IMG/VR virus record: IMGVR_UViG_3300023196_003068
Coordinates: 10,409-74,408 of that record
Source of the DNA: a virus
DNA: 64,000 bases
Direction: 5' to 3' (one strand)
Shown one piece after another: positions 12,131 to 60,368 of the stretch. The notes beneath the pieces are model-generated. The model did not search any database, was not told where the DNA came from, and saw only the letters and a list, made by a program, of their open reading frames with translations. Every line of letters starts with the position of its first letter. The first letter of the stretch is position 1. A program made the translations under genes and the position numbers.

Positions 12131-12688
12131 ATGACTAAATCCAAAATACTAGAAGAATTCACAAAGCACAGGCACGATCATAAAAGCTATGTGTTTTTAT
12201 ATCCCTTACTACAATTACCAAAAACAATTCTCAAACCTCTAAATACATTTCTATACTTAAATAAAAAGGAAGTGTATAAATATAAATATCTATTTGCATT
12301 ATATCACGAATCATTAGAAAAGATAGAAGAAGCTATGCATATTATAGAGGACAATAACTTTTTTGATTTTAAACTAACAGATAGAGATGGTTATATTATA
12401 GTTGTATTTATGCTAGAAAACCACTCTATCTATTTTGACAAAATCATGAAAGGAGAATATTCAAAATTAGAGCCTCTTGAAAAGTTATTATTAAATCAAG
12501 CGGGACACCCAATAGCGGCAATAGGTACAAACCCACAACACTTCTATAGGGATTATGCAGACGATATGGACATATCCGAAAGCGACATAGCAGAAGGGGC
12601 TAACTTAATAAACCCTCCTAATATGACTACTGAAATTTTACAAGTAGATAAAAAAGTAATGTCTGACTTTTATAAATACACTAATTAG
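12131..12688 (+). CDS. Hypothetical protein, last gene of the + strand module
   Basis: 185 aa (KSYVFLYPLL, GEYSKL); its stop overlaps the stop of the convergent gene. Confidence 0.75.
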   Translation: MTKSKILEEFTKHRHDHKSYVFLYPLLQLPKTILKPLNTFLYLNKKEVYKYKYLFALYHESLEKIEEAMHIIEDNNFFDFKLTDRDGYIIVVFMLENHSIYFDKIMKGEYSKLEPLEKLLLNQAGHPIAAIGTNPQHFYRDYADDMDISESDIAEGANLINPPNMTTEILQVDKKVMSDFYKYTN

Positions 12689-15600
12689 TATGGGAAGGCT
12701 TGTTCGCTTTCAATTCCATCTGCTGGAGATATTAAATTTCCATTATAACCAAGCAGCTTACTAAGAATAGCATGCGTCCATTTCGTCTCCTCAGATTGCT
12801 GAAAGGTATAGGGACCGGCATTTTGTTTAATCTCGGTATCCTTACCTTCAGCCATCTCTTTCATAAGTTGAATAATCAACATTATATCTTTATAAGCCCC
12901 CTCTTGTGCTGCATTTTTCATCATTAACATATCGCCCATCAGCATAAACCCACGAAAAGGATTAAATGTTTTATTTTCTCTTTCCACCCTTAGACTCAAT
13001 CTTAAAAATTGAAGTTTCCAATAATCTGTCCAGTCCATATCTGCCCAGGGATGAGCATCTGCTCTACGAGCATCTGCTATCCAGGGAAGATTTGGCAAAG
13101 ATGTTGTATTTTTTAAATCCATTATCATACCATCTCTATCTTGTCCTTCCACTAATTCACCATCTAAATTATAATAATTATAAGTAAAAGCTCTATCGTC
13201 ATCATCATCATTAAACCTTAACCATAAATGAAACTGATCAATAAGCATATTTACAATACTTGCCATTACAACCTGCATAACAGCAGTTTTACGCCCTTGA
13301 TTTCTCCAAATAGAAGTCAAACGAGAACCTGTAACATTTCCTTGAGATATATCTTTAAGACCAAAAAGCAAATCCCTACCGGCTAAAGCCGCCTCAATAA
13401 ATTGACCATATTCTGCTGTTTGAGTATACCAATCAAATCTTCTCTGAAACCTATCCCTCTTACTTGTTTGTTGAGATCTAGTTCTAACTTGATAACGATC
13501 TAGAGTCATACCCGGAAGAAATCGCATTACAGCAAACGCTGCTTTACCCGTTAAAGTTCTATTAACAAACTCAGATTCAGCAGACAGACCAGCAATACCT
13601 GTTGTTTTCTTAAGATAACCTTTATGATGTTTAATAATCTGCTGTATTTTTTTACCTAATACAACACGCCCTTCTTTATCATAGGTAATAGAATATTCTT
13701 CTGGAACTCCAGCCTTTGTTTGTATCACACCATCAACAAGTTCTATAGCATTATCTAGCGTAGTAAACCTATCAGAGCCCTCCATCTTAAAACGATATTT
13801 CTTATTATCAAGAAGAGCATACATAGCAGTATAGTTTGCTTCATTCTGTAGATAAGCCCTTATGCCAAATCCTACACGAAGCGTTACCACATCTATGACA
13901 GATGTACGAGATCCACGCTCTCCAACACTTTGAGCAAGTCTATCAGGACTTGCATCCATAATATCTAAAAATTGCAAGGTAATAGGTTTTGCAGAAGCTT
14001 TATATTGTTGATAAGTAACTACACCAATAGCCCTCTTAGCCTTTAACTTTCCAACTAAAAGATTTTTAGCATTAAAATGACGAGTATCTGTAATTTTATA
14101 AAGAAATTGAATATTAGCACTCAAATAGTTTGTTACATCAGACATCCAATTAAACATAAACCACTTCCTACTTGAGAGTTTCATGAATTTACTAAGAATA
14201 ACAGCTCTAGCTTTTCTAGATGAATCTTTCTCCCATCGAGATGACAATCTAAGACCTGAAAAATATTGTTCCAAAATATTTCCTACAGCAAATGCCCTGT
14301 TAGATATTGTATTATCTCTACTCATTTGTTGTAATGTTTTCGTTCTATTCTTAATTCTAGCAACAGTTGGATCTTGAATTTGATCCTTTACTATCTGATT
14401 AAGAGATTGTGCCAATGAATTTATCTCACCAAGAGATTTAAAAATCTCTACCGAATGTTGATACTTACCTATACTACTAATGATATCAGTACTAACTTCA
14501 TTGACATCAATATCATACATACCGGTAATTGGTCTTGTTAAGGTCTGCATTTGTGCATTGGGAACTTTCAATCCTTGAGCCAAATGATTATAACCATACT
14601 CAACATCATCCCTTTGAATTCTCCAAATATTTCGAATAGACTCAATTAGTCTATTTGTACCAATGCCCCTTAAAATTTTGCTAGACGTGGAATCACCCTT
14701 AGCATATCTATTATAAACAGCACCAATACCAATACCCTCTACAAATTTCTTACGAGTTCTAGGGAAATGCAATCCTAATTTTTGAGAATTAGAAAGATTT
14801 GCTTGATTATCCAGATGATGGTTCTTTACATACTGTAATAAATCCCATTTAACACGATTCTTTTCAAACAAATCAAAATACTCCTGATTTATGAATCTAT
14901 CATCCTTTGCTCCATTCTCTACAGTTTTAGGCAACCACTCCCCTTTATTATTTATAGTCGCCACAACAAGTTTACCGTTATCATCTACATAATCTCGTTC
15001 TATTTTTTTAGTAAGAAACTCATCTTTTACTTTTCGGACTTGATAATTTGAATTAGGAACCCTAGGTACACCATCAAATTCTAATAACCCAGTAACATTT
15101 CCGTCTGAATCCTTTAAAGGGAAGGCTTTGTAAAAATTATCATCAGTTGGACGTGTATATTGCCAAATAGAAGTTTTCATATAAATAATGGTTGGCTTTC
15201 CCTTATCTATAGTACGCTCTGCTTCGTAATGGTTATCGTCAAACCATTGTTTAAACATACTATTTTCTTCTCTAATTATATCAAGCGTACCTCTAAAACC
15301 ATCATCTGATAATATAGACTCAAATATATCATCACTTACAATATCTCCACTCTCCCTATCGATATTATATCTCTGATACACCTCATTATCAAACATCTTT
15401 TTAGTTTTATCATTGGAATCTATGATTTCTAAAAACCTATCTCTATAGAATCCAGTAGAAAAACTTCTTGCCAGTCTACCTAACAAGGTATCAATTTCTT
15501 GAAGTCGAGCGGCAGACGCTTCACTAATGCCAAGAGATGTTAATCCTTTAGCTAACTGCCTAACAAAGTATTTATGCGCTAAAGCATCCTCATTATTTTT

Positions 15601-18585
15601 ATGTTTCCCATGCTTATCATAATAAGAACTAAGATATGCTAACTCGCTGAGTTGATTTTTTGTTAAGCCTAACTTTGTATATAGCTCACCCCTTGCTTCT
15701 TCAATTTTTTCATGAAGATTTCTAATCTTTATTTGAACATCCCTAGTAAGAGTATTACCATTAGAATGGCCCATCGACGTTCTTGCAGGTTTAGATAACT
15801 CATATATCTCCTCATACAAGGGAGTAAGATCGGTTATCTCTATATTCTTTTGTGTAAGCGGTTCAAGAATTTCTGAGCGTTCATCAAGTAGTTGCTTACG
15901 TTCATCATACCATTTATCATCAACCTGTACTATAGTATTATGCTCAATCCACGTATCTATTGCATTTTGAAAAGCCTCTGTTCCTGGAGAAAGCTTAGGA
16001 TTTTTTTCAAGAGATGCAATCATATTATCATAAGCATCTTGAAACTTTTCATCATTTGTTGTAGATTCATAAAATGGACGTTGTTTTTCACGAAACTCAC
16101 GCAGCCTCTCTGCTATAGCAAGGGCTTCTCCTGTTTTTTTATTTCCTAACTCATCCGTTAAGCTAAATAAATACTCATACTCCCTCCATTTTTCCTGAAG
16201 AGCTTCAGCATTTTCGACATTTATATGGGCATCAAGAGCAACATCGGCTAACTCATCAGCTTCTTCATAAAACTTATCCAAAGCCATACGTGCTTTTATA
16301 CCAATATCATCTCTAAATAGTTTCCTAACCTCATATACTTCAGAAACATTAGTTTGGTTCATGAAGTCTGTCTTAAAATCTTCAAGCTTTCCTCTGGCAA
16401 TGATATATTCTCTGTGGTTTTTTACCTTCGGATTTCTCCTATATTCTTCCTTAGCGTTGTTAACTTCTTGTTTCAACAACTTTTCTGTATAATGATGGCT
16501 ATCTTGACTCTTTTTGCCATTAAAAGCATTTTGAAATTCCCAAACTTCAAAATTTTCTACCTCTCCTTTATCATTCTCTCTTCCATAATCTGTAACTTGA
16601 CCTAACGCTCTTCCTAAATTCCCCTGGCCTACCCATCGTTTAAAATTCCAACCAGTAGCTCTGAAGTGTTCTTTCAAACCATCAAGAAACTCCGCTTCAT
16701 TCTTATTGATATTAGCATTGGCCTCATTTAACTTATTCTCTAGAAATGAGAAAAAACTACCCACTATTTTATCCTGAGAATTATTATACCCTTCATAATA
16801 TACATTAACCCAGCTAGGATCTAAGGCCCCTTCCACGAGTATTCTTTTAAAATCCTCTATGTTAGGCTTAAACGCCTCCAGGGCCATGTTAGAAAGTTCT
16901 ATAAGCTCATTCTCTTCGGGTGTGGATAATTTCTCATCAACTTTTGATAACCTATTTTGTTTACGCTCAAGTACATCTTTACGATTAAGCTCATCAACAG
17001 TTAAGCCATAATATTCTTTATGCATCTGATTGTATTCAGCGTAATTAGACTCCTTTAACCTTTCTAATTCATCTAAATACATCTTATCGGCATTTCCCTG
17101 AGCTTCAATCATTTGAGAATAAAGTACATCAGCCACACCATCAATACGCATAACATCAACCTTCTTCTTAAGAGCATAAATCTTACTCTTTAAGTCAGAT
17201 AAAAATTCACGTAAGCTACCTTTACCTTCAGGTAAAATCCCTTTTGTTTCTTCAGCAATTAAGTTATCGATATAGTTATACCACTGGTCTACATACTGAG
17301 CAATCCCAAACATTGTATCAATACTAGCAGGATCTATAAGTTTTGTTTTAGGAAGAGAATCTATCTTAGCACCAAAAGCATCCATTACAGTATCCACTTC
17401 TGTTATTGTATTAACAAACATTTGGATTCGCTTTGAAACAATAGAAGCCGCATCTCCATTATTAAGTGCTGCAACATACTCGTCGGTAAGCCTATCCATC
17501 CTTGGTATTGCTTTACGGTCATTAGTATCTGAAGCAAATTTCTCAGCAGCTTGCCTCATTTTTTGTAGAATACCGGTATTATCTTCAGTAACAAGACCTT
17601 CTGCAAATCTCTCATAAATAGTCCCCTCCCTCATGTTGGCAACCTGAGATTTAATAACAGTATTAAGATCATCCATAATATCTTGAGCCTTTGAACGAGA
17701 CTCTTTATTCTGGGCATCCATCATCTTAGTAAACTCCTTTTGAAGCATGATAACATCATCCTTCTTTAAAAGCTCTACATTTAACTTAAAATTCTCACCC
17801 TGATTAAGCATATCAACAAAATCATGTAATGATGTATCCCCGGATAGCTTTGCTACATTAACAGACCTACCAAATTTCTTACGTAAAAATTGTCTGATAT
17901 TGTATATTAATTTATCAAACCAGCTCTTACTTTTAGTTAAAGACTTATCGTTTATATGAGTTAATGCTCTAACAATAGCCTCTTCCATAAAAAGATTATG
18001 ATCCTCAACCTTCCCATAGTAAGAATCCTTCTTAAGTTCTTCAACAATAATATTCCCAAAATCTTCTTTAAGGAGATCGGTATATAATTTTTGCATCAGC
18101 TTTGGATTGCTTTTAGAGAGAGCCTTTATTATAGGATGGGAAAATTCATGGAAAATAGTTTCCGGAGTAAACTCCCCTTCAGTAAAATAAACGGTTCCTG
18201 CTTGATAAAATCCTTTAACATCTATAGAACTATTTCTTAAATCCTTAGACTCTTTTGCAGATACAATTCTATAATCAATCCCTAATTGATTTGAAAAAGC
18301 CTCCATTGCGGACATACTCTCCTTAGTATTCCTTTGAATAATTATCTTTTCAAGATCCCTAATAATGTCCTCCTCTGTTACTTTAGGAACATCTTGAGCA
18401 GTATCCAGGATTTTTGGAATATCTACATCCATAAATCGATCATTGATTTTTTTCAACACAACGCTTGGTGGACGAACCACTCCGTCTTGTTCAAAATAAT
18501 CACGTTCAGCCTCCCTTTCTCCTACAACAGAAGACAGCTTTTTAAATCTATCCTGGTCTACTTTATTTATAATGCAAATTCCCAT
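12685..18585 (-). CDS. Large virion cargo protein with N-terminal zincin-like metallopeptidase domain
   Basis: 1966 aa; KGFY...TIFHEFSHP...MEEAIV (HExxH at 18136-18150); mostly helical; in the RNAP cargo operon; only Cys is C4. Confidence 0.75.
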   Translation of the reverse strand: MGICIINKVDQDRFKKLSSVVGEREAERDYFEQDGVVRPPSVVLKKINDRFMDVDIPKILDTAQDVPKVTEEDIIRDLEKIIIQRNTKESMSAMEAFSNQLGIDYRIVSAKESKDLRNSSIDVKGFYQAGTVYFTEGEFTPETIFHEFSHPIIKALSKSNPKLMQKLYTDLLKEDFGNIIVEELKKDSYYGKVEDHNLFMEEAIVRALTHINDKSLTKSKSWFDKLIYNIRQFLRKKFGRSVNVAKLSGDTSLHDFVDMLNQGENFKLNVELLKKDDVIMLQKEFTKMMDAQNKESRSKAQDIMDDLNTVIKSQVANMREGTIYERFAEGLVTEDNTGILQKMRQAAEKFASDTNDRKAIPRMDRLTDEYVAALNNGDAASIVSKRIQMFVNTITEVDTVMDAFGAKIDSLPKTKLIDPASIDTMFGIAQYVDQWYNYIDNLIAEETKGILPEGKGSLREFLSDLKSKIYALKKKVDVMRIDGVADVLYSQMIEAQGNADKMYLDELERLKESNYAEYNQMHKEYYGLTVDELNRKDVLERKQNRLSKVDEKLSTPEENELIELSNMALEAFKPNIEDFKRILVEGALDPSWVNVYYEGYNNSQDKIVGSFFSFLENKLNEANANINKNEAEFLDGLKEHFRATGWNFKRWVGQGNLGRALGQVTDYGRENDKGEVENFEVWEFQNAFNGKKSQDSHHYTEKLLKQEVNNAKEEYRRNPKVKNHREYIIARGKLEDFKTDFMNQTNVSEVYEVRKLFRDDIGIKARMALDKFYEEADELADVALDAHINVENAEALQEKWREYEYLFSLTDELGNKKTGEALAIAERLREFREKQRPFYESTTNDEKFQDAYDNMIASLEKNPKLSPGTEAFQNAIDTWIEHNTIVQVDDKWYDERKQLLDERSEILEPLTQKNIEITDLTPLYEEIYELSKPARTSMGHSNGNTLTRDVQIKIRNLHEKIEEARGELYTKLGLTKNQLSELAYLSSYYDKHGKHKNNEDALAHKYFVRQLAKGLTSLGISEASAARLQEIDTLLGRLARSFSTGFYRDRFLEIIDSNDKTKKMFDNEVYQRYNIDRESGDIVSDDIFESILSDDGFRGTLDIIREENSMFKQWFDDNHYEAERTIDKGKPTIIYMKTSIWQYTRPTDDNFYKAFPLKDSDGNVTGLLEFDGVPRVPNSNYQVRKVKDEFLTKKIERDYVDDNGKLVVATINNKGEWLPKTVENGAKDDRFINQEYFDLFEKNRVKWDLLQYVKNHHLDNQANLSNSQKLGLHFPRTRKKFVEGIGIGAVYNRYAKGDSTSSKILRGIGTNRLIESIRNIWRIQRDDVEYGYNHLAQGLKVPNAQMQTLTRPITGMYDIDVNEVSTDIISSIGKYQHSVEIFKSLGEINSLAQSLNQIVKDQIQDPTVARIKNRTKTLQQMSRDNTISNRAFAVGNILEQYFSGLRLSSRWEKDSSRKARAVILSKFMKLSSRKWFMFNWMSDVTNYLSANIQFLYKITDTRHFNAKNLLVGKLKAKRAIGVVTYQQYKASAKPITLQFLDIMDASPDRLAQSVGERGSRTSVIDVVTLRVGFGIRAYLQNEANYTAMYALLDNKKYRFKMEGSDRFTTLDNAIELVDGVIQTKAGVPEEYSITYDKEGRVVLGKKIQQIIKHHKGYLKKTTGIAGLSAESEFVNRTLTGKAAFAVMRFLPGMTLDRYQVRTRSQQTSKRDRFQRRFDWYTQTAEYGQFIEAALAGRDLLFGLKDISQGNVTGSRLTSIWRNQGRKTAVMQVVMASIVNMLIDQFHLWLRFNDDDDDRAFTYNYYNLDGELVEGQDRDGMIMDLKNTTSLPNLPWIADARRADAHPWADMDWTDYWKLQFLRLSLRVERENKTFNPFRGFMLMGDMLMMKNAAQEGAYKDIMLIIQLMKEMAEGKDTEIKQNAGPYTFQQSEETKWTHAILSKLLGYNGNLISPADGIESEQAFPY

Positions 18586-18586
18586 A

Positions 18587-19693
18587 CTAACAATCTTTTC
18601 TTTTGCGTTTAATTCTACTTAAATCCTTGTCATTAATGTCCTGGCTTAAATCTTTTGATGGATCGTGTGGCCACTCTGTAGCTGTGTCTTGCTTTTCTGC
18701 GGTTGATTTATAGTTGTCTGGATTAGAGATATCATTCTTAGCAAAAGCCTCTTTTTCGAATTTTCTCACACCATCCACTATTAAACGTTGAGCTTCTGAT
18801 ACTAAATTACTCCCCTCAATTGTTTTGAGTAACTCATCAAGCCTCCCTCTGATACCTCTTACATTCTCTATACGGTCTGAGACTGTCTTGTCTTCTTCCT
18901 TTAGTGCTGCGTATTCTTTTTCTTGTTTTGAGAGTTCTCGACTGGTAGACTTTTTGTGTTGGTCTTTTTGGATGCCGCTCATATCTCTAACACGCTCAAT
19001 GTTTTCTATTAAATAGTCTATTGTGTTGTTATGAACTTCATCAATAGGACTGCGCAACTTATTTAACTCCTCTATCAATGTCCCATTACGAATGCTTATC
19101 GAATTAACAATAATATCAAAATCAAGAAGCTTCCTATATAGCTTAACATCTGGTCTGTGGGGTTTTTCTTCTGCTTTTTGAGATTCTCCACTCCTAACTA
19201 TAGCTCTAGAAGGGTGAACACTCTGCTCAATCTCCCATTCATTCTTATAGTAGTCAGCATCAGATTGATAATCTCGTTTTTCTTGATCCAGCAATGCGGT
19301 ATCGCCTTTAAAAAAAGCAATGTCTCTTTTGAAATCATCAAACTCATCATTTACTTCTTCAAGATCCTTATCGCCATACTTAACCCTCCAGGCTTGCACT
19401 AGGATATTCGGAGTAGAAATAGTAACCTCAATTGAATCAACCAATGTATTATTAATGGAAGTCCATCCTTGAGCAAACTTCGGCCCATACATGGCTCCCA
19501 TTTTTTTAGAAACCCTTTCTGCATTCTTATTAGCAATATGCCATAATTTAGATTTATCAAACTTATGACTAACCGGCATCAATATTACACCAGGCTTAAT
19601 TTCACGAAAGGATGTAGACTTCCCCTTAAATGCCTGAATTGCATTATATGTACTTTGTTCTACTCTCTCGTCTAAACTACAATCGTTAGCCAT
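18587..19693 (-). CDS. Putative cargo/linker protein
   Basis: 368 aa between giant cargo genes; only Cys are C5 and the terminal C368. Confidence 0.7.
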   Translation of the reverse strand: MANDCSLDERVEQSTYNAIQAFKGKSTSFREIKPGVILMPVSHKFDKSKLWHIANKNAERVSKKMGAMYGPKFAQGWTSINNTLVDSIEVTISTPNILVQAWRVKYGDKDLEEVNDEFDDFKRDIAFFKGDTALLDQEKRDYQSDADYYKNEWEIEQSVHPSRAIVRSGESQKAEEKPHRPDVKLYRKLLDFDIIVNSISIRNGTLIEELNKLRSPIDEVHNNTIDYLIENIERVRDMSGIQKDQHKKSTSRELSKQEKEYAALKEEDKTVSDRIENVRGIRGRLDELLKTIEGSNLVSEAQRLIVDGVRKFEKEAFAKNDISNPDNYKSTAEKQDTATEWPHDPSKDLSQDINDKDLSRIKRKRKDC

Positions 19694-19696
19694 AAT

Positions 19697-31600: not shown

Positions 31601-33490
31601 CTTAATTTGAAGGCGTATAACTTTTCTTAAAGGATTATCTTCTGATTTCCACCATCTATCTGCAGCATCATCTTGTTCTTTAGTAGATTTTCCTCGTTTG
31701 TTATGCTCCGATATTGTTCTAAAAAGTAAATCTTTTGCTTCTTCGTCGGTTTTTTCTTCTATCTCCGTAGATGCCTCTATAGAGGAAAATGATAAATAAG
31801 AACCATGGCCTCTAATCTCTCCTTTATCATTGGGAACTTGTGTAATATAACCATTATCACTAATAAACGCTGCTCTATCTTTTTCGACTATTGTTATTTC
31901 ATTATCCTTAATAGAACCTACAACCCTAACCTTATCTGTTAATGTTACCCCACGATATAAACCAAAATTAATTTCTGGTTTACGAGCCATCATTATTCTA
32001 TCCCCATCTCTAAATATTTGATTATGAAAGGTTACATTCTCTAATCCATTTACAAGCTCATAATCTTTAGGAAGATCTTGATGATAATCAAATGGTACAA
32101 GCTTTTGCGTCCACTCAATAAAGGTTTCTTTAAAATTCTCAAAATTAACCGGAGAACCATTCCTGAACACGATTGCCCTAGAATCACCCAGGACTACTGA
32201 TGTAATTCTTATGCCATCATCTTTAATTGTAAAAGGTATCTCGTGTTTTATATTGCTACTCGCTCTAAACTGAATAAAATTAGTAATAAGCCTTTTCCTT
32301 TCAATTAATGGCAAAGGATTACCATCTATTTTTAAATCAGGATTTACTATTAGCTCTGCAATATAATCAAGTTCCTTTTCGGATAACTGATCTAAAGGTT
32401 TATTGTGTATTCTAGCAGGTGCCGATGATCTAGGAACTTTCAGTACTGGAAAATTGGATTTACCTATAGATGCAATAGTCAGCACAGTCTCACTAATATT
32501 TCTAATACTCCCTATAGGAGTTTGTGTATTGTGATCCCTTGCAACAAACCCGATGCTACTAGCATTCATGTTTAAATGAAAGAATACATTTTTCTCAGCC
32601 AAAAGCTTTCTTGAAGTATTCAACATTGCGATATGATTATCTATCTCTGCATTAACAAGTTTTGATGCATCCTCCGGGCTTAATGGTTCTTCTTTTCTAT
32701 TCACAAGTGAATCAATTTTAGATTCAATAGTTACCTTATACTCAGCCTTGCTTACTCTTATAGGAAAAGCAGGAATCTTACCATTAACATCAGGGTTTCC
32801 TTGTTCATCGAACTTAACTATATTGCCATCCTTATCAACTAACACCATCACCGGGCGAGACAAATCATCCTTTGGATACTTATAACTAATATCAGAGTTA
32901 AGATTAGCTTGTTCAATGGTCATCATTTTAAACCTATACCCCTTGCTATTGTTAGAATTAATTACAGAAGTCTGAACAGCAATTTCAAATACCTTTTCCT
33001 GGTCTGGTACATTCTTGGAATATTGAAAATCTGCATCCCACTCAGACTCCTGGCTAATAGTCTTAGCAAAAGAACGAGATATTGCGTTATACGAAAGAGG
33101 AGCCATTGGTGCTACTGTAATGCCGCCAACTCCTAGTGAGCTAACTATACCAGTAATTATGTTCTGAAAGTCCTCTTTAGATGGTTGTTGAGAAGCCTTA
33201 TATATCTCAGTTCTTTTTTTGTTTATCTCTCCAACAAGAGTCTTCTCATTAATTGCCGGGTTCTTTAGGATATACTGCGTAAGTATTTCAGGCAGAATTG
33301 TGAAGTGCTGAATAAGAGTTTCTTGATTATCAAGCTTAGTCTCAGATAGATTAAAATCCTTAAGGGCTTTCTGATAAAGTTCTCTTTGAATTTCATCATA
33401 CGTCTTCTCGTTGGAAATTATATTCTCCAAATTATTTGTGAAGTAAGTCCCAAAAAGATTAATTGACCTAGAAGTTATACAAACATTCAT
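19697..33490 (-). CDS. Giant virion-packaged DNA-dependent RNA polymerase (crAss-like two-barrel RNAP) with zincin and C-terminal accessory domains
   Basis: 4597 aa; RIPT...LP...P.EIVAKTGSDFDFDKL (DxDxD at 26636-26650), KRNAG, DAQGW, YVDVA motifs; HESWH...EEYLAEEF zincin at ~31330-31510; SLOG/NADAR/AlkB-like tail. Confidence 0.9.
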   Translation of the reverse strand: MNVCITSRSINLFGTYFTNNLENIISNEKTYDEIQRELYQKALKDFNLSETKLDNQETLIQHFTILPEILTQYILKNPAINEKTLVGEINKKRTEIYKASQQPSKEDFQNIITGIVSSLGVGGITVAPMAPLSYNAISRSFAKTISQESEWDADFQYSKNVPDQEKVFEIAVQTSVINSNNSKGYRFKMMTIEQANLNSDISYKYPKDDLSRPVMVLVDKDGNIVKFDEQGNPDVNGKIPAFPIRVSKAEYKVTIESKIDSLVNRKEEPLSPEDASKLVNAEIDNHIAMLNTSRKLLAEKNVFFHLNMNASSIGFVARDHNTQTPIGSIRNISETVLTIASIGKSNFPVLKVPRSSAPARIHNKPLDQLSEKELDYIAELIVNPDLKIDGNPLPLIERKRLITNFIQFRASSNIKHEIPFTIKDDGIRITSVVLGDSRAIVFRNGSPVNFENFKETFIEWTQKLVPFDYHQDLPKDYELVNGLENVTFHNQIFRDGDRIMMARKPEINFGLYRGVTLTDKVRVVGSIKDNEITIVEKDRAAFISDNGYITQVPNDKGEIRGHGSYLSFSSIEASTEIEEKTDEEAKDLLFRTISEHNKRGKSTKEQDDAADRWWKSEDNPLRKVIRLQIKDKVHEKGPKYVADYIAGLITLYSGSQKTDIYHESWHGLTDSILTKEEVAEIYKEVRGLGGQFTVTVLGKAKTLNFKDATDLEIEEYLAEEFRKYATNRSAFNKKPKSKVAKFFAKLLAQLKKFFGKTTVNEVTTLNKFGPKVNAIFKDLYEGNIDISKFEIPNDPETYYSSFELGKDVDLSFDDVNITMTSMKALMHRFVVTALNTGATPESNLKAIELLTQLSSLDVSDPEFNKNYKEANKLLDGHLGKTSIRNGLGYLRVVQEPSILAAAFKYMENVFKTKRQIYMNGMNVLSIVEAEKVALLDKILDSFGDTEASINTFKDDNNTIIGLFLNNYADFYTFNEEVQNIEELTDDETDARLRHVFDRTGAEFSITESANDLTRHLLSGIPSYKRQGRSDKYKPNRLGLPQPLPFKTILGKLVKIVGNRVDADDIYNALKEAAKFDHEIRQVLKVMGDLQSADIKTVEQVQWGALWQSIAKATNRLTYHSLEKIEDEATESVRWESIVGKPKGNAAIIKGQWRDNFRNQSEINEWSIYATDEADNRQYLETYDLMGVIESFETMVHVPINASGELFHKEKDVNYDYEPFHRKQWLADPFPLLKIIGIELPETIEVRDALEKGYEELGIGKGVLHYIIESIKLRGEFASEKVSRIYDLESLFKSFDYIDPNNEKRTQPDVSGYYEQIVQLAQHLSDEYVNFTEFNANNERMSEKTKHSSMTIQAATLNNAKSYDELIGIPGMEGFNVETNPAIAGNTWFIQMFQLDIEGDKRGERNPAINITHETLSGSKVRYGREEKGIEAISSDENTKFISDMYLTLAARQEIPRSEAKATSATVFAPVKVKGEINPRKGLVVSMNEINHIFSEEYDDLKSPINSLILYNQFQGHLEGELVRIARIKAIKARIEKGETVKFDKGFLERGEDLHMFDLLLSDDVQKRLLERNIDTSFTLDSTLSFSEKKEIEKDLKRYFEKRSEELLKEKGDVKIAENKIEEYRKNDKEEVATTKERMFRAMIINNYINNVNYVTMFVGDLAIYEVAAGNFHKRNAGVISTGDMFRFDQSWYNYINTEKNNVFEMNGFAKKHMKAIGKTFKETTFDGHLNTGIIKESEHDSYFKDQYEKLGGTKKENYEGIEEADAQGWITFDTYRILSMASNNWTTTGEASQESVYQKILKGETLEPADLKVTFPVRKFQYNGNISNEDNNNYGLQMRGFHKYSLAPIIPTAYAGTKLEKLHEKMMEDGVHYVTMETGSKLSTIVTIKGKNSDGSINKNAIEDAKADDVYNKEREITDAPFTINKIHVRWLRDQIRTQSGYKGYTTLPTQWRKLVLLGIMEGGVPTDFNGTAKQWKVIEENWDSLSEKEQENKSPNYKWLTNYEDILHRMEVKLKEDLLFDIGMEEEITWVEGKEKKTYKGDTKKLLIYIQSQLEKEDLLPEEVQFISKQDGSGEMIDDLSISLVAEKIEKILTVMVDKKLRGIEVNGEPLVQVTGAMQESFEGPTAEDIEKFGDILSAGDLKSYYLKDADGNFIKDEREGAWADYKISKMEVKIGLQGKFKHLLKLKHPDGQDITVRVKDAKSGKDIIDSQASLARLNSALRDKEWFAKYEDMLTIAGPRIPTAEENTLEAMVVKQFLPESVGPIVVVPSEIVAKTGSDFDFDKLFTMFPNIVSINGSVEMQVHKKVSESFEKLGKSIDGYSTKINDVYDQIKDAKTRRINELKKVNESIKDIEGIIRAKFPQYAIQMEKLEMQMVETLQYASDVYNSVGNFKNYTRKQQRNVHAYTSSRISEIQQAIDEGIAVFDERLDIALAEIVFTSEETATIEKIKDNYRAEINGLYDKAEDLKVKKGRVLRKLFNKGMGGLENELLKSFKDRITMSNNFEALIRPNKTDLFTEGKTEEKVEGKTKKKKRKTKAQEETDLRSLADQAYALIEKSFNEFNRLDKEAGTDIARSTVLDYRMNLQKQQDNSIGIDALGIAAIATTYYALFTRFGATLNTATEKEKREHAKAIEVLENDKSTKAQIDIANKVIFEFTDYTIKFKHNKANGAISLAMAKNMDGLPISQVLGQLVNGYVDVATNPWIFKIQGNKENTPQLLLMVMAGMSIKDIAYFVSMPMIVKYNKIKAELSGVFSNLSDEFGVSPIVERSKILSKARYAMFDWFKEGDGFKDEREWKASEYKKVSALLDGNLDFSVIKDLLDEGLKAVDGKGAFSFEQFKIFSHYLEIEDLALDLQTFQDLTKFDTQKIRSISEATNRITRTTKFKSKQSAIPNLWFDEIEFSPVGIFDNDQFIIELFSKYFALRNNPIVIEKSFEINSPPGIIPQVTRNKFKNDFTLFLYQNSLFNSESYDGYALEEVQGSSDPLVINEVDKKITFGSKWMDEAQQRVSTILFGADYISSDLSQMFPPGGRNQFVRFSIEFAKLEEETKDMSNEEVQKHLYQFNSYSSGTFTRVALLYKAALYRSDDPVAMFDFRMGRASILRRLMQKHPELRENFSLIQDLRFDYAIDLRKTNIFLSDIKDADMARIYRENLIALKAHRIPAVADFFNKFGNMAIMQTGLNTGAKYALTKIINQYKLWNVIEEGIKAERVIRALKAAEKAKASGTPLESIGYIDLFTAIYDGLLSKENASRIMSRGINYMKDDLGVTIETHVVKSLTYNNVQIVNNFNELPSDSIQVYDHQWFKGNSLDLDFIEELKGEEIYILDRKIDAPEGVIQEELDQMLLTEFGIDNRKSVPYLVDLSLGQTPDNISIATIEGARAKDTSRDEAMANASTVAIGKDVELSGIPRSTTSKYIGIIEAGDYKERLAHSKTKFSSEDVVWVFGNNTFRAKEAHDLKEEGYQKEIEAVFKTHYLPKIKKAMKAGARFNIGLKDSGIEQLASDFLKEKGWVAIPRYAPIGKYMEWTNDKDLSVNNLFDPNKAPVKLDYLGLDYLFNEALSKEINSRSADDLITNESIIEVANDMKQKVKDKFKNHGDKKSDFFDRLANTDGPIEIGVSPYSTMLEKVLMEVRTVYRNTEIAKLKNQKSISVGKDKFSAKIMEVWNKLGGKTIRGKVVIVEGVDETTGHLRIFKNTRNKKVVTAFRVNKKLGFLKSFQQYNAIGNPISADPNKPGRGAQEFIGWLQGTMHTTMEQEYRTALLEAFKKGKLRGLPIEYYKNIGGPSHATVLDYFINDVAPSQSTSVKGVNIFSGSNDPLGAALTNPTHYNPRGKSSKSKGKLIGTYLQLDKGLNYAGNPLGRPYLDVEEAYFDLREEGKGGTTSRNLELITNLIEAKLRQYPFLVDKIIERGGLEFLEKSIHTYDEKDDAQAYQKGEGTWWTSDKGNHFLKTLINAYNKVVADRPEGTNNPKDFTAHSGGALGADKIWDDIAKEFGAIKFNHYYLGKVSKTNAPYGNVDITNTQIETDGKTKVASAAKEMWGYAYKTMSDSRLIRNWAQVANSEAVFAVAPIGKKGDTWSEDAYKPEDKQRKISKSESVQGGTGYAVEMAIQAGKPVYVYNDPNKKADSHLPQGWYTWDGSKFVSIDTPILTNNFAAIGSRGMSANAEEAIRDVYKATFKGKLTTSEDKLSVEVGRYVKDSKGITYIAVKKNTNGTWQVLNLKEEGAKAKKSFSEKNLTPLNSKAIQVAYKGAKYLVTPKENIISLTSNKKMKWGATDGNRKDILDLYKKKLPKTPVRVISDAYGVNVAETNPSIEKEKEFIKLIQPQILAQATKENIGARANLMFQFGLRWTRIELDADPKLEINSYDKRSRDAEVAEMKRKGITKSTGFKYAYHGLDQKGNPLPGLSVLQPIIDEVEQVLGIDMSNYDAVIGNIYLPGDKISTHRDTTESETARNYGVVVYTIGVGNAINIYEDIDKNGNPTGLASWAETGRKTEIPTKSGTIYTFGMDGKGRFEMAHDTPMAPTKGNNLPPITLPDGRVVKDYTITLTFRRASDITEGMPKAPSRTIDITDQQKDKGTALTQEDIDSLPDEIC

Positions 33491-36400
33491 TAGTTCTTAC
33501 AGTTATTAAGTTCTTCTATAATTGACGCGTTCAATTCTTCAGGTGACATTTCCGATACATCTTTTGTAGATTTTGCTAAATTCCCAAATATCTTACTCAA
33601 TGGTTCAGCAAGTTCATTAACATCTTCTTCCGCAATAGTTGAGTCAAATTTCGATGGATCATAATCTGTTCCTTCCTCAAGAACTAATTGAGCGGTTCCA
33701 ATAAACGATAGGGGGTTCATGGAAACGATACCCCCATCGCTATAGCGTTGCATGGTTATTCGCATATCATTTGATGGTAAAATTCTCATTATCCCGTCTT
33801 TAGTTTCAACAGCCTTATAATGGAAGTCTGGATTTTGAATTGCTATATGAACTTCATTACTTAGCATGGCTCTTTGTTTATCACTAAAATTAGGATCATT
33901 AATCAGAGAAGTTATAGCTATCAAATCTTTTAATGATGTTGATTCCTGGATATAACTTCGAAGTGATTTTGCATACCTATATATTTCAGTTCTGCCTACC
34001 ACCTTTTTTGAGCTCTCATAAACAACATCATCTATTGCTTTAACCCTTTCTTCTGCCTCTGCCACCGCGTTCATCTTCCTATACAACTTCATTTCTGCCT
34101 CTGTAAGAGTTGAAACATCTCCATGAAATGCCCCATTAGCAATTAGAAACATATTTGTTTTCTCATACAACTCTCGATCCTGGGCTTTACCTTCAACTTC
34201 TCCCAATCCTTCGGGCGAAGTATAGAAATCCATTTTATTAAAAGATAAAATCTCCTTCTCCATTGATGTTACTAAATGATCTTTTAAATTAGATACAGTT
34301 GCGTAGTCCTTTAGGATGGTGCTTACACTTTTCTTAATGTCGATACCCAAGGCAGTTATCTGTTCCAATTGCTCATCATTAAAGATACTATTAATAATAT
34401 CTCCTACGGACTTAAGTTTAGAATTTTTAGCAGTATAACTTCTCGTCTTTTTGCCCGGCACAGCATTCGGATGTATGTCAGTATTTTTAAGAAAGTTATA
34501 TACCATATAATCTATTGAAAGATTATTTGAAATGGCCCCAGTTGGATGGCCAAAATGCTCTTCTAGTTTCTCGGTAAGTGTTTGAGAATCCGTCTTCTTA
34601 TCTTTAATTGTTGGATCTTTTTTAAATACTCTATAAGATACTTTATCTGTAGCTGTTTTATATCTTTCAATTCTAAAAGGCGATTTGCTTTTTTTAAGTG
34701 ACGCATTAATAGATCGCGCTACCTCAGTGGACATTGTTTTTTTATCAAATGTTTCATCTAATAAGTCCCTAATTGCTCCCTTGTCTTCGGTATCTATATT
34801 TAATCCATCTTTCTTTATGGACTTATTAAGATTATTGATTTGCTTATAAAACTCATATGCATCATTTATGAATTCTTCTTTTGGCTTTAAGGCAGAGGTT
34901 GGCCATTGCTGTAGGAATAACTCCCAATTTGATTTCGGTATCTTAAATCTTACAGGAACTTCTACATCATTGCCTGCATAAACTAACTCTTCGTCTGAAC
35001 TCAACAGCTCTAAGTTTGCGTTAAACCTATCTTTTGAACTCTTAGCATCTGCATCTTCTTTCTTTTCTGATTCCTTTTTCTTTTTATGATATTCCTTTGC
35101 TATGCTTTCTAAAAGAACCGACGGATCATCGCCAATAGTAATGCTATTTAGTATATCTAATCTATTTTGAACTACTTTTTCTGAAAATAATTCCGTAAAC
35201 CCTGGGAAAAAATCATTGAGATTTTTAGCTGTAAACTCTGTACCTGGATTAAAGAACTCACGCTCTCTTTCTTTAAGCTCTTGATTTATACGATCAAAGG
35301 TATCGCTTCCGTATTTATTAAATTTCGGATCCTTTCCTTCATGATGCATCTCAATAAACCATCCATTTTTAGCAAAGCCTAAAAGCGGAACCCATTCACC
35401 CTTTGATTTTTTATTGCCCTCTCCAACAGAACGGTACATTAGAAATCTTTTGCCATTTGCAAATACATCAATAACCAAACGACCATCAATAACTGCACGT
35501 AACTCTCCATACTCCCAATCAGAACCCGCTTCATCAAGCTCCTTGCCTAAAGCAACATATTTTTTTAAGTATGCCAAACTTTTTGGATCGTTTCCATCTT
35601 CAACATCAACTACCCAATTATCCAAAGCACCTATAGCATTACCAGAAGTTATTACATGAGGTGCCACTTTGTTTTCATCTGCCGAAGGAGGTGGTGAAGG
35701 ATTATCTACTTTTTTAACAGGATCATGGGCTTTTTTATTCCACTCACTCATTGCTTTAATATACTTCCCAGTAGACATCTTACTTTCTATGGCTTTAACA
35801 TCTTCTTCAGTTAAGCTTTCCACTCTAGCCATAGGACTTAATACAGGGGGCTCTGAATCAAAATCTTTATTTGCCTTAATAGCCTTATCATCATCATCTT
35901 TTTTAGGCTTCTGTTTATGATTGGGATCTATTTCTTGAAGATGGAATTCTGCAAAAACTTGTTGAAGTTCTTCTGGAAGTTGGTAGAATGAAGTCTCATT
36001 ATCAATTATGATATTTCCACTGGAATCTGTATCAACTTTTGTCTGAACTTCAGAGCCTGGTTGAATAGGTATAGAATCATCTACTGCAATATCCTCTTCA
36101 ATCTTAATCCGTCTTTCATTAAGTTCTGCAATTTTTAATTTTGCGTCTTCAATCTTTTTCTTTACGCGATTGCGCTGTCTCCAAGATAAAATTCTAGATA
36201 CATCTTTCGTACTTTTAAGTTCTGCCCTTAATTTTGCAAGTTCTTCTTCTAGAACGGGAAGAGTCTTATTAATAACCTCAAGTTCGTTCTCTACAATTGG
36301 GGGAGTTTCATCTTTGCTAACTTCCTTTGGATCTTCTTCTTTTGGTTCTTCAACAACTTCTTCTGTAGGACTCTCTTGTGGTTCTACAGGAGGTTCAATT

Positions 36401-39400
36401 GGTTTTTCCTGAGAAACAACTTCATCTATATTCTCATCGGTAAGTGTTAGGAATGCTAAGTCTAATGCTCTATCCAATACGGAGCCATCGAAATTTCCCC
36501 TGAGCATATCCTCAACTTCTTTTTTAAGAGACTTCCACAGATTCCCACCTTCAACATCTGAAATATCTTCCACGCGAGCCATTACATCTTGTAATGATTT
36601 GTTGTTTAAGCTCTCAGATAAAAATACAGCTACACTACTAAAAATAGGATGCTGGTCAAGCTCTTCTTTAGTCCACTCTTTAGAATCGCGCTTAAGAAAA
36701 GCATGCTTAGTATCTTCCATAAGGTCTTCAACATCAGACTTGAGACTTGGATTAGCCTCTATCTTTTGATTAAAGTAGTTTTGTAGCAACGCAGAAATTG
36801 CAAGATATTCAAACGCTGTCTCACCTCCCTTATAGTCTTCAGCACTAAAGCGAACATCTATTACTATGTCCCCTTTATCGTTCATGTCTATTGGGGCATC
36901 TCCAGAATCAGTAAGAATAACTCTCGTGTCGTTAACCCCTCCCAACTCTATAATCTCAGATAATATTGCCCTCTCAGTCTGGTTTAATTTTTTGCTTCGC
37001 AATAGCTTCTTAACGAAAGTTGAAAGAGTTGTACGCTTATTCTTCCCATTGCTATAATCTTTGATTAGTTCATTGGCATTTCTTTTATCGGACTTACCTT
37101 TCTTCTTTCCCCTCCATCCTTTACCAGGAGCTGTAATGGTTTTACCTGTAAGTTTTTTATAACGCCTCGATACTATGTTTTGTGCCTCTCTTAGCCTCTC
37201 CCCTGTAAGCTGCTTTTTGGTTTTAATATCAAAGAACTGTGAAGGCATGATGCCTCTCTTAATTAAATCATCAACTTGACTTAAGTTAAATATTATACCC
37301 TCCTTTAGCAGGTCACTTATAGCATCATCTGAAGCTTTCTTTTCATAAAATAACTTTAGGGAATTCTCAATGATACGCTCCTTCTCTTCTTCATGCTCTT
37401 CAAGAGATTTTTTTATACGATCTATATGTGTTAATGAAGATACCGGATCTTTCATGGTATTAATAAATCTTTGTAATACCTTTGATTCTCCACGAAGATT
37501 CATATAATCCCAAACTTCTTGAAACTTCTCTTTATTAACAATCTCCGCTGCTTTAGAGGATTGAGTATCAGTTGTTAAATTATAAAAGTCATTAAATGCT
37601 TTAAACATTTCATCAAAAACATCTTCGGTAGCTTCTAAGTTATCCGTTAACTTCTCATACTTTTCTAAAGCCTCATCGTACTTTTTTAATGCTTCTAATT
37701 CCCCCTTTTTTTTAATGGATGTACCAACTTGATATTCTTCTGAAGCAGCTATATCAGTTTCTAATGACTTTATGCGCTTCTGGATATCATCTCTAGAGAG
37801 AATATCATTAAGGTCTGTTGTTGAAAATTTTTCATCCGTAACATAATAATACAAAGCATCCATTCTACCTGACAATTCATGCATCCTGTCTTCAGAAAAA
37901 AGCAACTCTCTTTTAAGTTCCTTAGTAGCATTATATAAAAGCTTTTTCTCCATAAACTCAGGATCATCTACCTCTAATGCTTGAATATTTATTGGTTCTA
38001 TAACATCCTTTTCTATACGATCATATGTTTCTTTAAATAACTTTATACGACCTACATACTTATCAACTTTTGTTAGAAATTCTCCTTTGTTTTCTGTAGT
38101 AATATCTGTTCTACCAAAAGCTTGATTTAATTCTTCAGCTGTATAGTTATGCGTATCCTTTAGGAAATCGATGAGCTCCTCTTCCATGCCAGACTCCATC
38201 AATGTTTCCAAACCTAATCGAAATGCTTCGGCCCTCTCATCCTCATGGCTCTTTCTATCTCCTTCCTCAGCAGAAGTGGCCATTTTTTCTCGCGCTATAG
38301 ATTGAGCGAATAAAGGATGATTTGCAAAATCACTCCAGCTACCACTATCGTTAAAGAATTTGGTTAACTCTTTAGCCTTTACTTTAGCAGTTTCATAACT
38401 CCTTTCTCGCGCTTGATGGAATTCTTCATTTGCAGTAAATCTTTTATAACCACCCCCCTTTGTAAAACTATTAACAGCAGAAATTGATGCACCAAAAGGA
38501 GATGCAAAGGTACCCATAAGCATACCCGAAGCAAATGAATGCCATGAGGCATCCCCTATTGAATCAAAAAACGCATCCCAATATGCTCCCTGTAAATGAG
38601 AACCTCCTCCAGCATATCTTTTACCCGCACCAGAAATAATATCCTGTCCTACCTCCTGAAAACCCTCCATTGAATTACCTAGAGTTTTCTTAGCGGTTCC
38701 TGCCCAAGTTAGCGAGCTAATTTTTTTCTTTAGATAATTGCTAACAACTTTTTTTGGATCTACTGCCTCAATCACACTCCTTCCCCCAACCCTCTTAGCT
38801 GTAAGCTGTAAAGATCGATGCATTCCAAATAGCTTATTAACAGAACGCATGCTTTTAAACATACCATTAAAAGTAACAGCGTTTGTTGCATATATTAATC
38901 CAAAATTTCCAGAGTAAGTAGCGTCATATGCAACTTGAGCATCGGCATTTATACCATCTAACATGGTATCATCCATTGTTTTCCCAATATTGGTTGCATT
39001 CCATTCTCTAATTTTTTCTTCTCTATACTCATCCCTAGCAAGATTAGCCTCTAATCTGGATTCAGCATGTGACATATAAAACTTACGACCATCTCTAGCA
39101 AGAGCTCCGGCACCCTCTAAAACCTTTGCTAATCCATTCAGGTCTTTGAATTTATCAGCATTTCTTACATGATCAAAGGTGTTACTTAAAGGCAATAGGC
39201 CTCTAAAATATTTACCTGTAGAACCAACTCCGGAGGCAAGCCTGGCATTTTTAATATTCTTAGTGAAATTAATTGCATCAATCATCCTATCGAACCCCTT
39301 GACAATTTTTTGAGCTCTATGTAAGTAATTCATCCCTCTTGCTCCAACAGCCACGCCTTCGGCAACGGTTAATGGTGCTCCCGCGCCTCCCGTTAATGCT

Positions 39401-39999
39401 GTAGCTCCAGCTAATAAAAGTTCCTCAGAAGCAATAGCCCCCATGATACCTACAGTATATCCAGACGATAGCATTGTGTTGGCAAGAAAACCAGCAGTTC
39501 CCTTTCTAGTAGATCCATAGAGATCCATTGTTTCGGCAAATTCTTTATGAATGTTCTCATTGCCAAATGCACCAAAGCCAAATGTATCTCTCCAGCCTAC
39601 ACCTGCTAATTTCCACAACCCCGTCCAAGCCCTTTGTACATCAGCCGATGCGCTTGTATTCTGATTATAAAAGGAAGAGTTATCTCTAAAGGGGTCATAG
39701 CCTAACTTACCATAGGTCTCACTACCATAGGTGAGATATCTATCAATATCTTTTCCAGCAAAATCATAAGCCGCACCAAATCCAGCCATACCAAATACCC
39801 GATCTCCTTGTTGAGCAATAACACTATTTGCTACATGATGTGGGGTTATGACATCATCTGGTATATCGTCTGGATCTGTAATGTTATCTACATTACGGCG
39901 ATGCTGAATACTATTTGCTACATCATAAGGATTTGTAATACTATTCGCTACATCATGCGGAGTTATAATATCTGTGGTGGATTCTTCTTTTTTCGCCAT
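33490..39999 (-). CDS. Large virion cargo protein with Gly/Ala-rich hydrophobic N-terminal segments (possible ejection-channel component)
   Basis: 2169 aa; TVGIMGAIASEELLLAGATALTGGAGAPLTVA and SFASGMLMGTFASPFGASISAV; coiled coils; only Cys is C2167; TAATG overlap with the RNAP gene. Confidence 0.75.
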   Translation of the reverse strand: MAKKEESTTDIITPHDVANSITNPYDVANSIQHRRNVDNITDPDDIPDDVITPHHVANSVIAQQGDRVFGMAGFGAAYDFAGKDIDRYLTYGSETYGKLGYDPFRDNSSFYNQNTSASADVQRAWTGLWKLAGVGWRDTFGFGAFGNENIHKEFAETMDLYGSTRKGTAGFLANTMLSSGYTVGIMGAIASEELLLAGATALTGGAGAPLTVAEGVAVGARGMNYLHRAQKIVKGFDRMIDAINFTKNIKNARLASGVGSTGKYFRGLLPLSNTFDHVRNADKFKDLNGLAKVLEGAGALARDGRKFYMSHAESRLEANLARDEYREEKIREWNATNIGKTMDDTMLDGINADAQVAYDATYSGNFGLIYATNAVTFNGMFKSMRSVNKLFGMHRSLQLTAKRVGGRSVIEAVDPKKVVSNYLKKKISSLTWAGTAKKTLGNSMEGFQEVGQDIISGAGKRYAGGGSHLQGAYWDAFFDSIGDASWHSFASGMLMGTFASPFGASISAVNSFTKGGGYKRFTANEEFHQARERSYETAKVKAKELTKFFNDSGSWSDFANHPLFAQSIAREKMATSAEEGDRKSHEDERAEAFRLGLETLMESGMEEELIDFLKDTHNYTAEELNQAFGRTDITTENKGEFLTKVDKYVGRIKLFKETYDRIEKDVIEPINIQALEVDDPEFMEKKLLYNATKELKRELLFSEDRMHELSGRMDALYYYVTDEKFSTTDLNDILSRDDIQKRIKSLETDIAASEEYQVGTSIKKKGELEALKKYDEALEKYEKLTDNLEATEDVFDEMFKAFNDFYNLTTDTQSSKAAEIVNKEKFQEVWDYMNLRGESKVLQRFINTMKDPVSSLTHIDRIKKSLEEHEEEKERIIENSLKLFYEKKASDDAISDLLKEGIIFNLSQVDDLIKRGIMPSQFFDIKTKKQLTGERLREAQNIVSRRYKKLTGKTITAPGKGWRGKKKGKSDKRNANELIKDYSNGKNKRTTLSTFVKKLLRSKKLNQTERAILSEIIELGGVNDTRVILTDSGDAPIDMNDKGDIVIDVRFSAEDYKGGETAFEYLAISALLQNYFNQKIEANPSLKSDVEDLMEDTKHAFLKRDSKEWTKEELDQHPIFSSVAVFLSESLNNKSLQDVMARVEDISDVEGGNLWKSLKKEVEDMLRGNFDGSVLDRALDLAFLTLTDENIDEVVSQEKPIEPPVEPQESPTEEVVEEPKEEDPKEVSKDETPPIVENELEVINKTLPVLEEELAKLRAELKSTKDVSRILSWRQRNRVKKKIEDAKLKIAELNERRIKIEEDIAVDDSIPIQPGSEVQTKVDTDSSGNIIIDNETSFYQLPEELQQVFAEFHLQEIDPNHKQKPKKDDDDKAIKANKDFDSEPPVLSPMARVESLTEEDVKAIESKMSTGKYIKAMSEWNKKAHDPVKKVDNPSPPPSADENKVAPHVITSGNAIGALDNWVVDVEDGNDPKSLAYLKKYVALGKELDEAGSDWEYGELRAVIDGRLVIDVFANGKRFLMYRSVGEGNKKSKGEWVPLLGFAKNGWFIEMHHEGKDPKFNKYGSDTFDRINQELKEREREFFNPGTEFTAKNLNDFFPGFTELFSEKVVQNRLDILNSITIGDDPSVLLESIAKEYHKKKKESEKKEDADAKSSKDRFNANLELLSSDEELVYAGNDVEVPVRFKIPKSNWELFLQQWPTSALKPKEEFINDAYEFYKQINNLNKSIKKDGLNIDTEDKGAIRDLLDETFDKKTMSTEVARSINASLKKSKSPFRIERYKTATDKVSYRVFKKDPTIKDKKTDSQTLTEKLEEHFGHPTGAISNNLSIDYMVYNFLKNTDIHPNAVPGKKTRSYTAKNSKLKSVGDIINSIFNDEQLEQITALGIDIKKSVSTILKDYATVSNLKDHLVTSMEKEILSFNKMDFYTSPEGLGEVEGKAQDRELYEKTNMFLIANGAFHGDVSTLTEAEMKLYRKMNAVAEAEERVKAIDDVVYESSKKVVGRTEIYRYAKSLRSYIQESTSLKDLIAITSLINDPNFSDKQRAMLSNEVHIAIQNPDFHYKAVETKDGIMRILPSNDMRITMQRYSDGGIVSMNPLSFIGTAQLVLEEGTDYDPSKFDSTIAEEDVNELAEPLSKIFGNLAKSTKDVSEMSPEELNASIIEELNNCKN

Positions 40000-42442: not shown

Positions 42443-42448
42443 TGTTTC

Positions 42449-44329: not shown

Positions 44330-44344
44330 CTATTAACTTTTTAT

Positions 44345-44352: not shown

Positions 44353-44377
44353 CTAATTCGTATTAACTATATTTTAG

Positions 44378-60352: not shown

Positions 60353-60368
60353 ATCTTTTTCTTAATAA

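Follow-up and report, generated by a model that had tools for sequence, protein, structure and literature searches.

How podophages with huge internal proteins choose their cargo, count it, and deliver it is largely an open question. Here, we take it up in one stretch of viral DNA of 64,000 nucleotides (bases 10409-74408 of the 74.4-kb linear IMG/VR record IMGVR_UViG_3300023196_003068, estimated completeness 63%), and it is this whole stretch that we call the window. Within it, a marine crAss-like phage has four adjoining minus-strand genes whose products are 2169, 4597, 368, and 1966 aa long, in that order, neighboring genes abutting or overlapping by 1 base. The second protein is an RNA polymerase (RNAP), and in all four together, cysteine appears only where one protein faces the next. 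In other words, our subject is a handful of cysteines at the ends of very large proteins, and what they might be doing there.

The closest precedent comes from the cyanopodophage A4. Its pre-ejectosome, seen by cryo-electron microscopy (cryo-EM), has the C-terminal helix of gp27 lying in a cleft of gp26 and joined there by a Cys1715-Cys5 disulfide (PMC12002296), and the link is described as stabilizing a pentameric ring around the portal barrel (PMC12002296). We find in the genome (Anabaena phage A-4L) that C1715 is the sole cysteine of gp27 (1717 aa) and that C5 is the sole cysteine of gp26 (1114 aa, beginning MSKHC). No general rule, chain, or redox release is stated in that paper (PMC12002296). 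The second precedent is the removal of cysteine from ejected proteins: the ejection operon of the Schitoviridae (N4 gp50; DEV gp71, gp72, and gp73) is Cys-suppressed, which has been attributed to passage through the periplasm (PMC11445570). N4 gp50 has 0 cysteines in 3491 aa, and T7 gp15 and gp16 have 0 as well; T7 gp14 (L093) has a single one at residue 2 (MCW...). An earlier note on this DNA, made from the letters alone and with no search of the literature, knew of no description of redox-released coupling of the kind discussed below; for a single link, A4 has made that statement out of date (PMC12002296), and the purge of cysteine was already in print for N4-like phages (PMC11445570).

Nearer to home, the phi14:2 and crAss001 orthologues of our proteins are virion proteins by mass spectrometry and are expected to be ejected after partial unfolding (10.1101/2020.03.07.982082; PMC10172136). 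The RNAP-related proteins of crAss001 have been placed in a cargo zone of the capsid, and folded, alpha-helical structures are predicted for them (PMC10172136); gp45, a protein outside the set with facing cysteines, is the one poised in the tail (PMC10172136). The crAss001 tail has hub-hub, hub-ring, and R1-R2 disulfides and a disulfide in the gp57 dimer (PMC10172136), so inter-subunit disulfides do form in crassvirus particles, but they sit in Cys-rich tail and capsid proteins and not in cargo.

The four genes make up the virion RNA-polymerase module of the phage. They share with phi14:2 gp67-gp66-gp65 and crAss001 gp47-gp50-gp49 their gene order, the RNAP catalytic loop, a last protein with a zincin motif, and cysteines at the termini only, and by analogy with these orthologues, we predict that all four are packaged and ejected. 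Residues 1-3000 of the RNAP match phi14:2 g066 and p-crAssphage gp44 by tblastn, and its TGSDFDFDK stretch aligns with the DFDxD loop found in the RNAPs of six named crassviruses, the residues invariant in all seven sequences being G80, D82, F83, D84, and D86; a phmmer search of the RNAP against PDB sequences gave no match. Two things set the window apart from phi14:2 and crAss001: its RNAP has 4597 aa vs. 2180 and 2412, and there is an extra 368-aa middle protein that has few relatives, all of them marine. What is particular to the window is a putative chain of four members, an RNAP larger than any other of the named set, and a family of middle protein that is not seen elsewhere.

The cysteine pattern itself is easily stated. 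By script count, the four proteins have six cysteines in 9100 aa, all of them at most five residues from a terminus that faces a neighbor. The 2169-aa protein has C2167 as its sole cysteine, the RNAP has C4 and C4597 only, the 368-aa protein has C5 and C368 only, and the 1966-aa protein has C4 as its sole cysteine, while the outer ends of the set (MAKKEEST... and ...EQAFPY) have none. The script reproduced exactly every position, coordinate, and count in the earlier note and turned up no internal cysteine that had been overlooked. At the cysteine content of the other proteins of the window (1.49%), 135 would be predicted in 9100 aa, and the probability of six or fewer is 5e-50; if six were placed at random, the probability that all would fall within the 30 facing-end positions is ~1e-15. 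In-frame TGY (cysteine) codons number 6 vs. the 112 expected from position-specific base frequencies, whereas the off-frame counts in the same four genes are 139 and 472, and the depletion therefore acts at the level of the protein. The start codons on which the head positions depend are backed by the N-termini of relatives, namely MNICIT (L012), MKVCIS (L013), MSCS and MACS (the 202-aa homologues of the 368-aa protein), and MSIC (L003).

That the other proteins of the window use cysteine freely, as was first thought, holds for their content overall but not for every one of them, the Cys-poor block being larger than the module and taking in the five genes upstream. These five (4091 aa) have only C128 and C134 of the 626-aa protein and C12 of the 420-aa protein. 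None stands at a junction in the manner of the four-gene set, and the junction between the 813- and 2169-aa proteins has no cysteine at all. Lying between a muzzle-like 1671-aa gene (phrog_37948) and the RNAP module, the five genes are placed as gp45/gp46-type cargo would be, and their products are presumably further cargo, outside the cysteine chain.

Does the pattern hold beyond one metagenomic record? The few relatives of the window (~41-57% identity) retain all three junction pairs. At the first junction, an upstream protein ending ITKCK faces MNICIT... in L012, and one ending KTCK faces MKVCIS... in L013. At the second, LPKDCE faces MSCS... (L003) and NIENCN faces MACS... (L002), the tail cysteine being the sole one of RNAP fragments of 1016 aa (L003) and 271 aa (L002). 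At the third, RNRNIC faces MSICIP... in L003, where the head cysteine is the sole one in 711 aa. In phi14:2, g067 has only C1797 (its last residue), g066 only C3 and C2179, and g065 only C3, in a total of 5398 aa; in crAss001, gp47 has only C2339, gp50 has C5, C2404, and one internal cysteine, and gp49 has only C5. The pair between first protein and RNAP is kept in p-crAssphage, cr3_1, and cr11_1, and the pair between RNAP and last protein is kept in cr118_1, so that the rule is seen in named crassviruses of three families, and in the IAS virus also. (The split of IAS gp055/gp056 looks like an artefact of the record, because an IAS-like IMG/VR locus has a single open reading frame [ORF] of 2979 aa there.)

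For a wider view, IMG/VR was scanned with the catalytic-loop alignment, and 80 loci, representing 30 clusters at 70% identity, were analyzed. Their evaluable junctions number 114, and they are all or nothing: 112 have both cysteines, 2 have neither, and 0 are one-sided. In 108 of the 112 paired junctions, the cysteines lie within 12 residues of both facing ends, and in the other 4, the sole cysteine of the upstream protein lies 19-24 residues from its end. Internal cysteines across the 80 loci come to 100 in 429,108 aa. The outer ends lack cysteine in the window and in seven named phages and usually do so in the tally of the 80 loci (whose exceptions were not inspected singly). As for the small middle proteins, there are at least three unrelated families of them, the 368-aa protein belonging to one, and each has exactly one head and one tail cysteine.

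Two natural rearrangements of the module tell us more. Where neighbors are fused, as in cr118 gp14 (first protein and RNAP) and p-crAss gp44 (RNAP and last protein), no cysteine is found near the fusion point, and the fused IMG/VR forms L026, L066, L068, L071, and L083 (4100-4700 aa) have 0 internal cysteines; the absence of cysteine at fusion points speaks against both a cleavage signal and intramolecular pairing. Where the first gene lies on the strand opposite the RNAP, as with crAss001 gp47 and IAS gp058, the tail cysteine is nevertheless kept; the signal is therefore one of protein, and a nucleotide signal at the junctions is excluded. The census of split and fused operons suggested in the earlier note thus shows the terminal-only pattern to be persistent, conserved, and reciprocal, with the pair gone on fusion. 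The named gut crassviruses (L005-L011) do have a few internal cysteines (for example, 7 in p-crAss gp44 and ~12 in the IAS-like RNAP), and marine phi14:2, the window, and most IMG/VR loci have none, a difference that may reflect the oxygen of the habitat.

We think it probable that, in the mature particle, the two cysteines of every facing pair are joined by an intermolecular disulfide, and coupling of neighbors head to tail is the reading that we find best. Reciprocity at 114/114 junctions, loss on fusion, and the A4 disulfide all favor the idea, put forward in the earlier note, that each C-terminal cysteine is bonded to the N-terminal cysteine of the next protein; the bonds themselves are suggested by analogy with A4. 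There, as here, the genes are neighbors and co-oriented, the upstream protein has its sole cysteine near the C-terminus, and the downstream protein has its sole or first cysteine within ~6 residues of the N-terminus. The A4 pair was seen in cryo-EM, so that in the one solved case, this sequence signature is a real disulfide. Searches with phmmer found no match at E <= 0.01 between A4 gp27 or gp26 and the proteins of the window or the named crassvirus cargo proteins, and what would be shared is therefore a mechanism and not a family. Unlike A4, which has one link, a 5+5 ring, and no RNA polymerase, the window would have three links joining four proteins, known here from their sequences. The comparison with N4-like phages runs the other way: their giant virion RNAPs and co-ejected proteins are nearly Cys-free, as ours are, but they lack terminal pairs, whereas the crassviruses retain exactly those cysteines that face one another (six in the window, all conserved).

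If so, a simple scheme follows. Internal cysteines are purged, as they are in other ejected phage proteins, and one is retained at each terminus that faces a neighbor; C2167-C4, C4597-C5, and C368-C4 disulfides would then tie the four proteins 1:1:1:1, in the order of their genes, into a linear chain of ~1 MDa. With every link only a few residues from a terminus, the chain would have the topology of a single polypeptide, which fits the relatives that encode neighboring members as true fusions. Candidate purposes are equimolar co-packaging, stabilization of a cargo core or pre-ejectosome, and ordered delivery, and the links could be reduced in the host cytoplasm; ordered threading and reductive release are steps that we infer. 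The picture of a chain threaded through the tail, as the earlier note had it, is unsupported; it is gp45 that crAss001 has in its tail, with the RNAP-related proteins in the capsid cargo zone. The membrane-like segments claimed for the leading protein are not there either (a Kyte-Doolittle scan of the 2169-aa protein at >=1.6 found none). In p-crAssphage (L005, BK010471), a putative thioredoxin and a truncated thioredoxin are encoded at 30177-30455 and 31175-31444, a few kilobases from the RNAP module; to connect them with the reduction of cargo disulfides would be pure speculation.

Several considerations weigh against such a chain. Because the cytoplasm where virions are assembled is reducing, the cysteines could be oxidized only late or after lysis. 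Gut crassviruses keep their cysteine pairs despite an anoxic habitat, and the position of the tail cysteine is not fixed, ranging from -1 to -24. The 857-aa gp47 of p-crAssphage (locus 4787-7360) has as its single cysteine an orphan at the tail, C856 (position -2, ending KQSCR), and the next protein, gp46, has no cysteine; the pairing rule leaves this orphan unexplained (the cr11_1 and cr110_1 homologues of this gp47 lack the tail cysteine). The A4 proteins have no sequence relationship to those of crassviruses, and what their link holds together is a folded pentameric ring, not a demonstrated train. Finally, no experiment on any crassvirus shows bonds between terminal cysteines: the crAss001 atlas, in which the cargo is unresolved, makes no mention of cargo cysteines (PMC10172136), the phi14:2 RNAP preprint makes none of terminal cysteines (10.1101/2020.03.07.982082), and in the literature, we found no statement of a terminal-cysteine rule for Crassvirales.

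The most serious competitor accepts the disulfides and disputes only what they are for. They may be structural, holding together, as in A4, a folded core of cargo or a pre-ejectosome within the capsid, with no special part in the order of exit or in redox release. We regard this as somewhat unlikely. In its favor, stabilization of a pentameric ring around the portal barrel is all that has been ascribed to the A4 link, and the RNAP-related proteins of crAss001, with their predicted alpha-helical folds, belong by assignment to the cargo of the capsid. What tells against it is that the order of the chain is the order of the fusions in relatives and that every link is terminal, so that a linear, threadable topology is preserved, whereas a pure staple could be anywhere on a surface. 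The chemistry is the same as in head-to-tail coupling for delivery; the purpose alone differs.

It is a good deal less probable that the terminal cysteines serve other partners—a shared metal ion, a protein of the portal or capsid interior, or another copy of the same protein (tail to tail or head to head). One thiol per terminus could indeed serve a bridging metal site, and sequence alone does not tell one partner from another. Independent partners, however, would not be expected to give both-or-none reciprocity at 114 junctions or the joint loss of a facing pair on fusion; no conserved His, Asp, or second Cys adjoins the terminal cysteines, and the A4 pair is a plain disulfide.

We give slightly less credence again, and very little in all, to a role in processing or regulation, whether as a signal for cleavage or recognition by the zincin or as a cysteine-switch holding the last protein's zincin in a latent state. 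The head cysteine and HExxH are equally invariant in that protein, and cleavage of fused polyproteins has been proposed for phi14:2 (10.1101/2020.03.07.982082). The fused forms, however, which alone would need cleavage, have no cysteine at their fusion points, and RNAPs also have head and tail cysteines, as do three unrelated small proteins with no protease; as for a switch, the PRCGxPD context of the matrix metalloproteinase type is missing (MGICIINK). Ring closure of the middle proteins (C4-C4597 and C5-C368), with the single cysteines of the two end proteins paired together, is arithmetically possible, there being as many heads as tails, and is highly improbable: fusion of the first protein with the RNAP removes the tail cysteine of the former and the head cysteine of the latter, which such a model puts in two different pairs, and the A4 pairing is between gene neighbors. 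Least credible of all, and rejected, is the view that chance, base composition, or a nucleotide signal such as translational coupling produced the pattern, for although the genes abut or overlap by 1 base and TGT stands near each stop and start, the probabilities (~1e-15 for placement and 5e-50 for depletion), the abundance of off-frame TGY, the varying codon (TGT or TGC) and distance from the terminus, the Cys-free 813/2169 junction, and the tail cysteines of crAss001 gp47 and IAS gp058, whose genes are on the opposite strand and not beside the RNAP start, all tell against it.

How far might head-to-tail coupling extend? We can imagine, tentatively and with more doubt than conviction, a terminal-cysteine code general to Crassvirales, in which a head and a tail cysteine would suffice to couple any protein into a covalent chain with the virion RNA polymerase, fixing the choice of cargo, its ratio, and its order of entry, with release by reduction in the cytoplasm; the three families of small middle proteins, the 368-aa protein among them, would have been recruited by gaining such couplers. 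This generality is the new part, a single bond (A4) and the Cys suppression of ejected proteins being already published. If the links are real, a simple rule that can be read from sequence would account for the joint packaging and delivery of the crassvirus RNA polymerase and its partners, would single out small proteins as predicted injected effectors, and would suggest a way to load foreign cargo.

The individual proteins, whose coordinates are collected in the table below, deserve a few words. The 2169-aa protein is homologous to proteins encoded 5' of the RNAP in eight IMG/VR loci, L028, L012, and L038 among them. In the C-terminal extension of the RNAP, residues 3973-4126 form a DprA-like Rossmann stretch (phrog_768, E 1e-6), and residues 4376-4458 give a weak, sub-threshold match to a 2-oxoglutarate (2OG)-Fe(II) oxygenase. 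The RNAP of the relative L002 ends in a different domain that has no assigned family, and it therefore looks as though the ejected RNAP has variable modules in its tail. By blastp, the 1966-aa protein resembles cr118 gp15 and also p-crAss gp44 in its C-terminal part, and it has 22 homologues among the IMG/VR loci; C4, H146, E147, and H150 are invariant in an alignment of 13 homologues. When its first 450 residues were modeled with AlphaFold2 (AF2), residues 80-270 formed a core with a predicted local distance difference test (pLDDT) score of 80-90, and residues 1-3 had low confidence; Foldseek gave no match to this model at E <= 0.001, and the zincin rows were weak (E >0.1).

The only relatives of the 368-aa protein are three 202-aa proteins from marine metagenomes (P0002, P0003, and an ORF of L003; ~50-55% identity), each with exactly one head and one terminal cysteine; tblastn of phage records and IMG/VR scans gave no match, and the ESM Atlas gave no usable one. 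In its AF2 model (pLDDT 55), the N-domain (residues 6-115) is confident, the middle is a low-confidence helical insert that is missing from the 202-aa forms, and both termini (residues 1-4 and 363-368) have low confidence. No fold matched this model above Z 7, the rows being dominated by the helical insert. Low model confidence at both termini of the 368-aa protein and at the start of the 1966-aa protein is consistent with flexible ends. PHROGs and Pfam had nothing for the 2169-, 368-, 1966-, 813-, 626-, 683-, 1549-, and 420-aa proteins.

Table 1. Genes and residues of the RNAP module and its upstream neighbors, in positions of the window
Feature	Position	Strand	Basis or remark
2169-aa first protein of the RNAP module	33490..39999	-	Positional counterpart of phi14:2 g067 and crAss001 gp47
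C2167 TGT codon, tail Cys of the 2169-aa protein (ending ELNNCKN)	33499..33501	-	Kept in L012 and L013
4597-aa virion-type RNA polymerase, long N- and C-terminal extensions	19697..33490	-	tblastn
C4 TGT codon, head Cys of the RNAP (MNVC)	33479..33481	-	L012 MNIC, L013 MKVC
RNAP catalytic region, residues 2200-2400, TGSDFDFDK loop	26291..26893	-	Alignment with six named crassvirus RNAPs
C4597 TGT codon, tail Cys of the RNAP (ending PDEIC)	19700..19702	-	L003 and L002 equivalents
368-aa lineage-specific middle protein	18587..19693	-	Only Cys C5 and C368
C5 TGT codon, head Cys of the 368-aa protein (MANDC)	19679..19681	-	Invariant in alignment with homologues
C368 TGT codon, tail Cys of the 368-aa protein (ending KRKDC)	18590..18592	-	Invariant in alignment with homologues
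1966-aa last protein, gp65/gp49-like, zincin HExxH motif	12685..18585	-	Homologue alignment
C4 TGC codon, head Cys of the 1966-aa protein (MGIC)	18574..18576	-	Invariant in 13 homologues, 18-54% identity
HEFSH (HExxH) metal-binding motif, residues 146-150 of the 1966-aa protein	18136..18150	-	13-homologue alignment
Five upstream Cys-poor genes (813, 626, 683, 1549, and 420 aa)	40001..52406	-	3 Cys in total

Elsewhere, the window has no tRNA genes, and a divergent plus-strand block encodes a Mom-family protein (8710-9414; PF25680, E 5e-21), a WGR-domain protein (7698-8774), and a PD-(D/E)XK nuclease (2251-3306); the WGR-domain protein also has an ATP-dependent ligase match slightly under the Pfam cut-off. 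The muzzle-like 1671-aa gene (52406-57421) encodes 21 cysteines and adjoins the minus-strand gene (57421-58359) of a 312-aa virion structural protein (phrog_34036), which has 9 cysteines clustered in residues 116-151. Farther along the same strand (59696-63520) is a run of five small genes (218-294 aa) with matches to collagen-like tail-fibre families, and each opens with a cluster of cysteines in its first 11 residues, which may knot the chains together by disulfides or fasten them to the tail hub.

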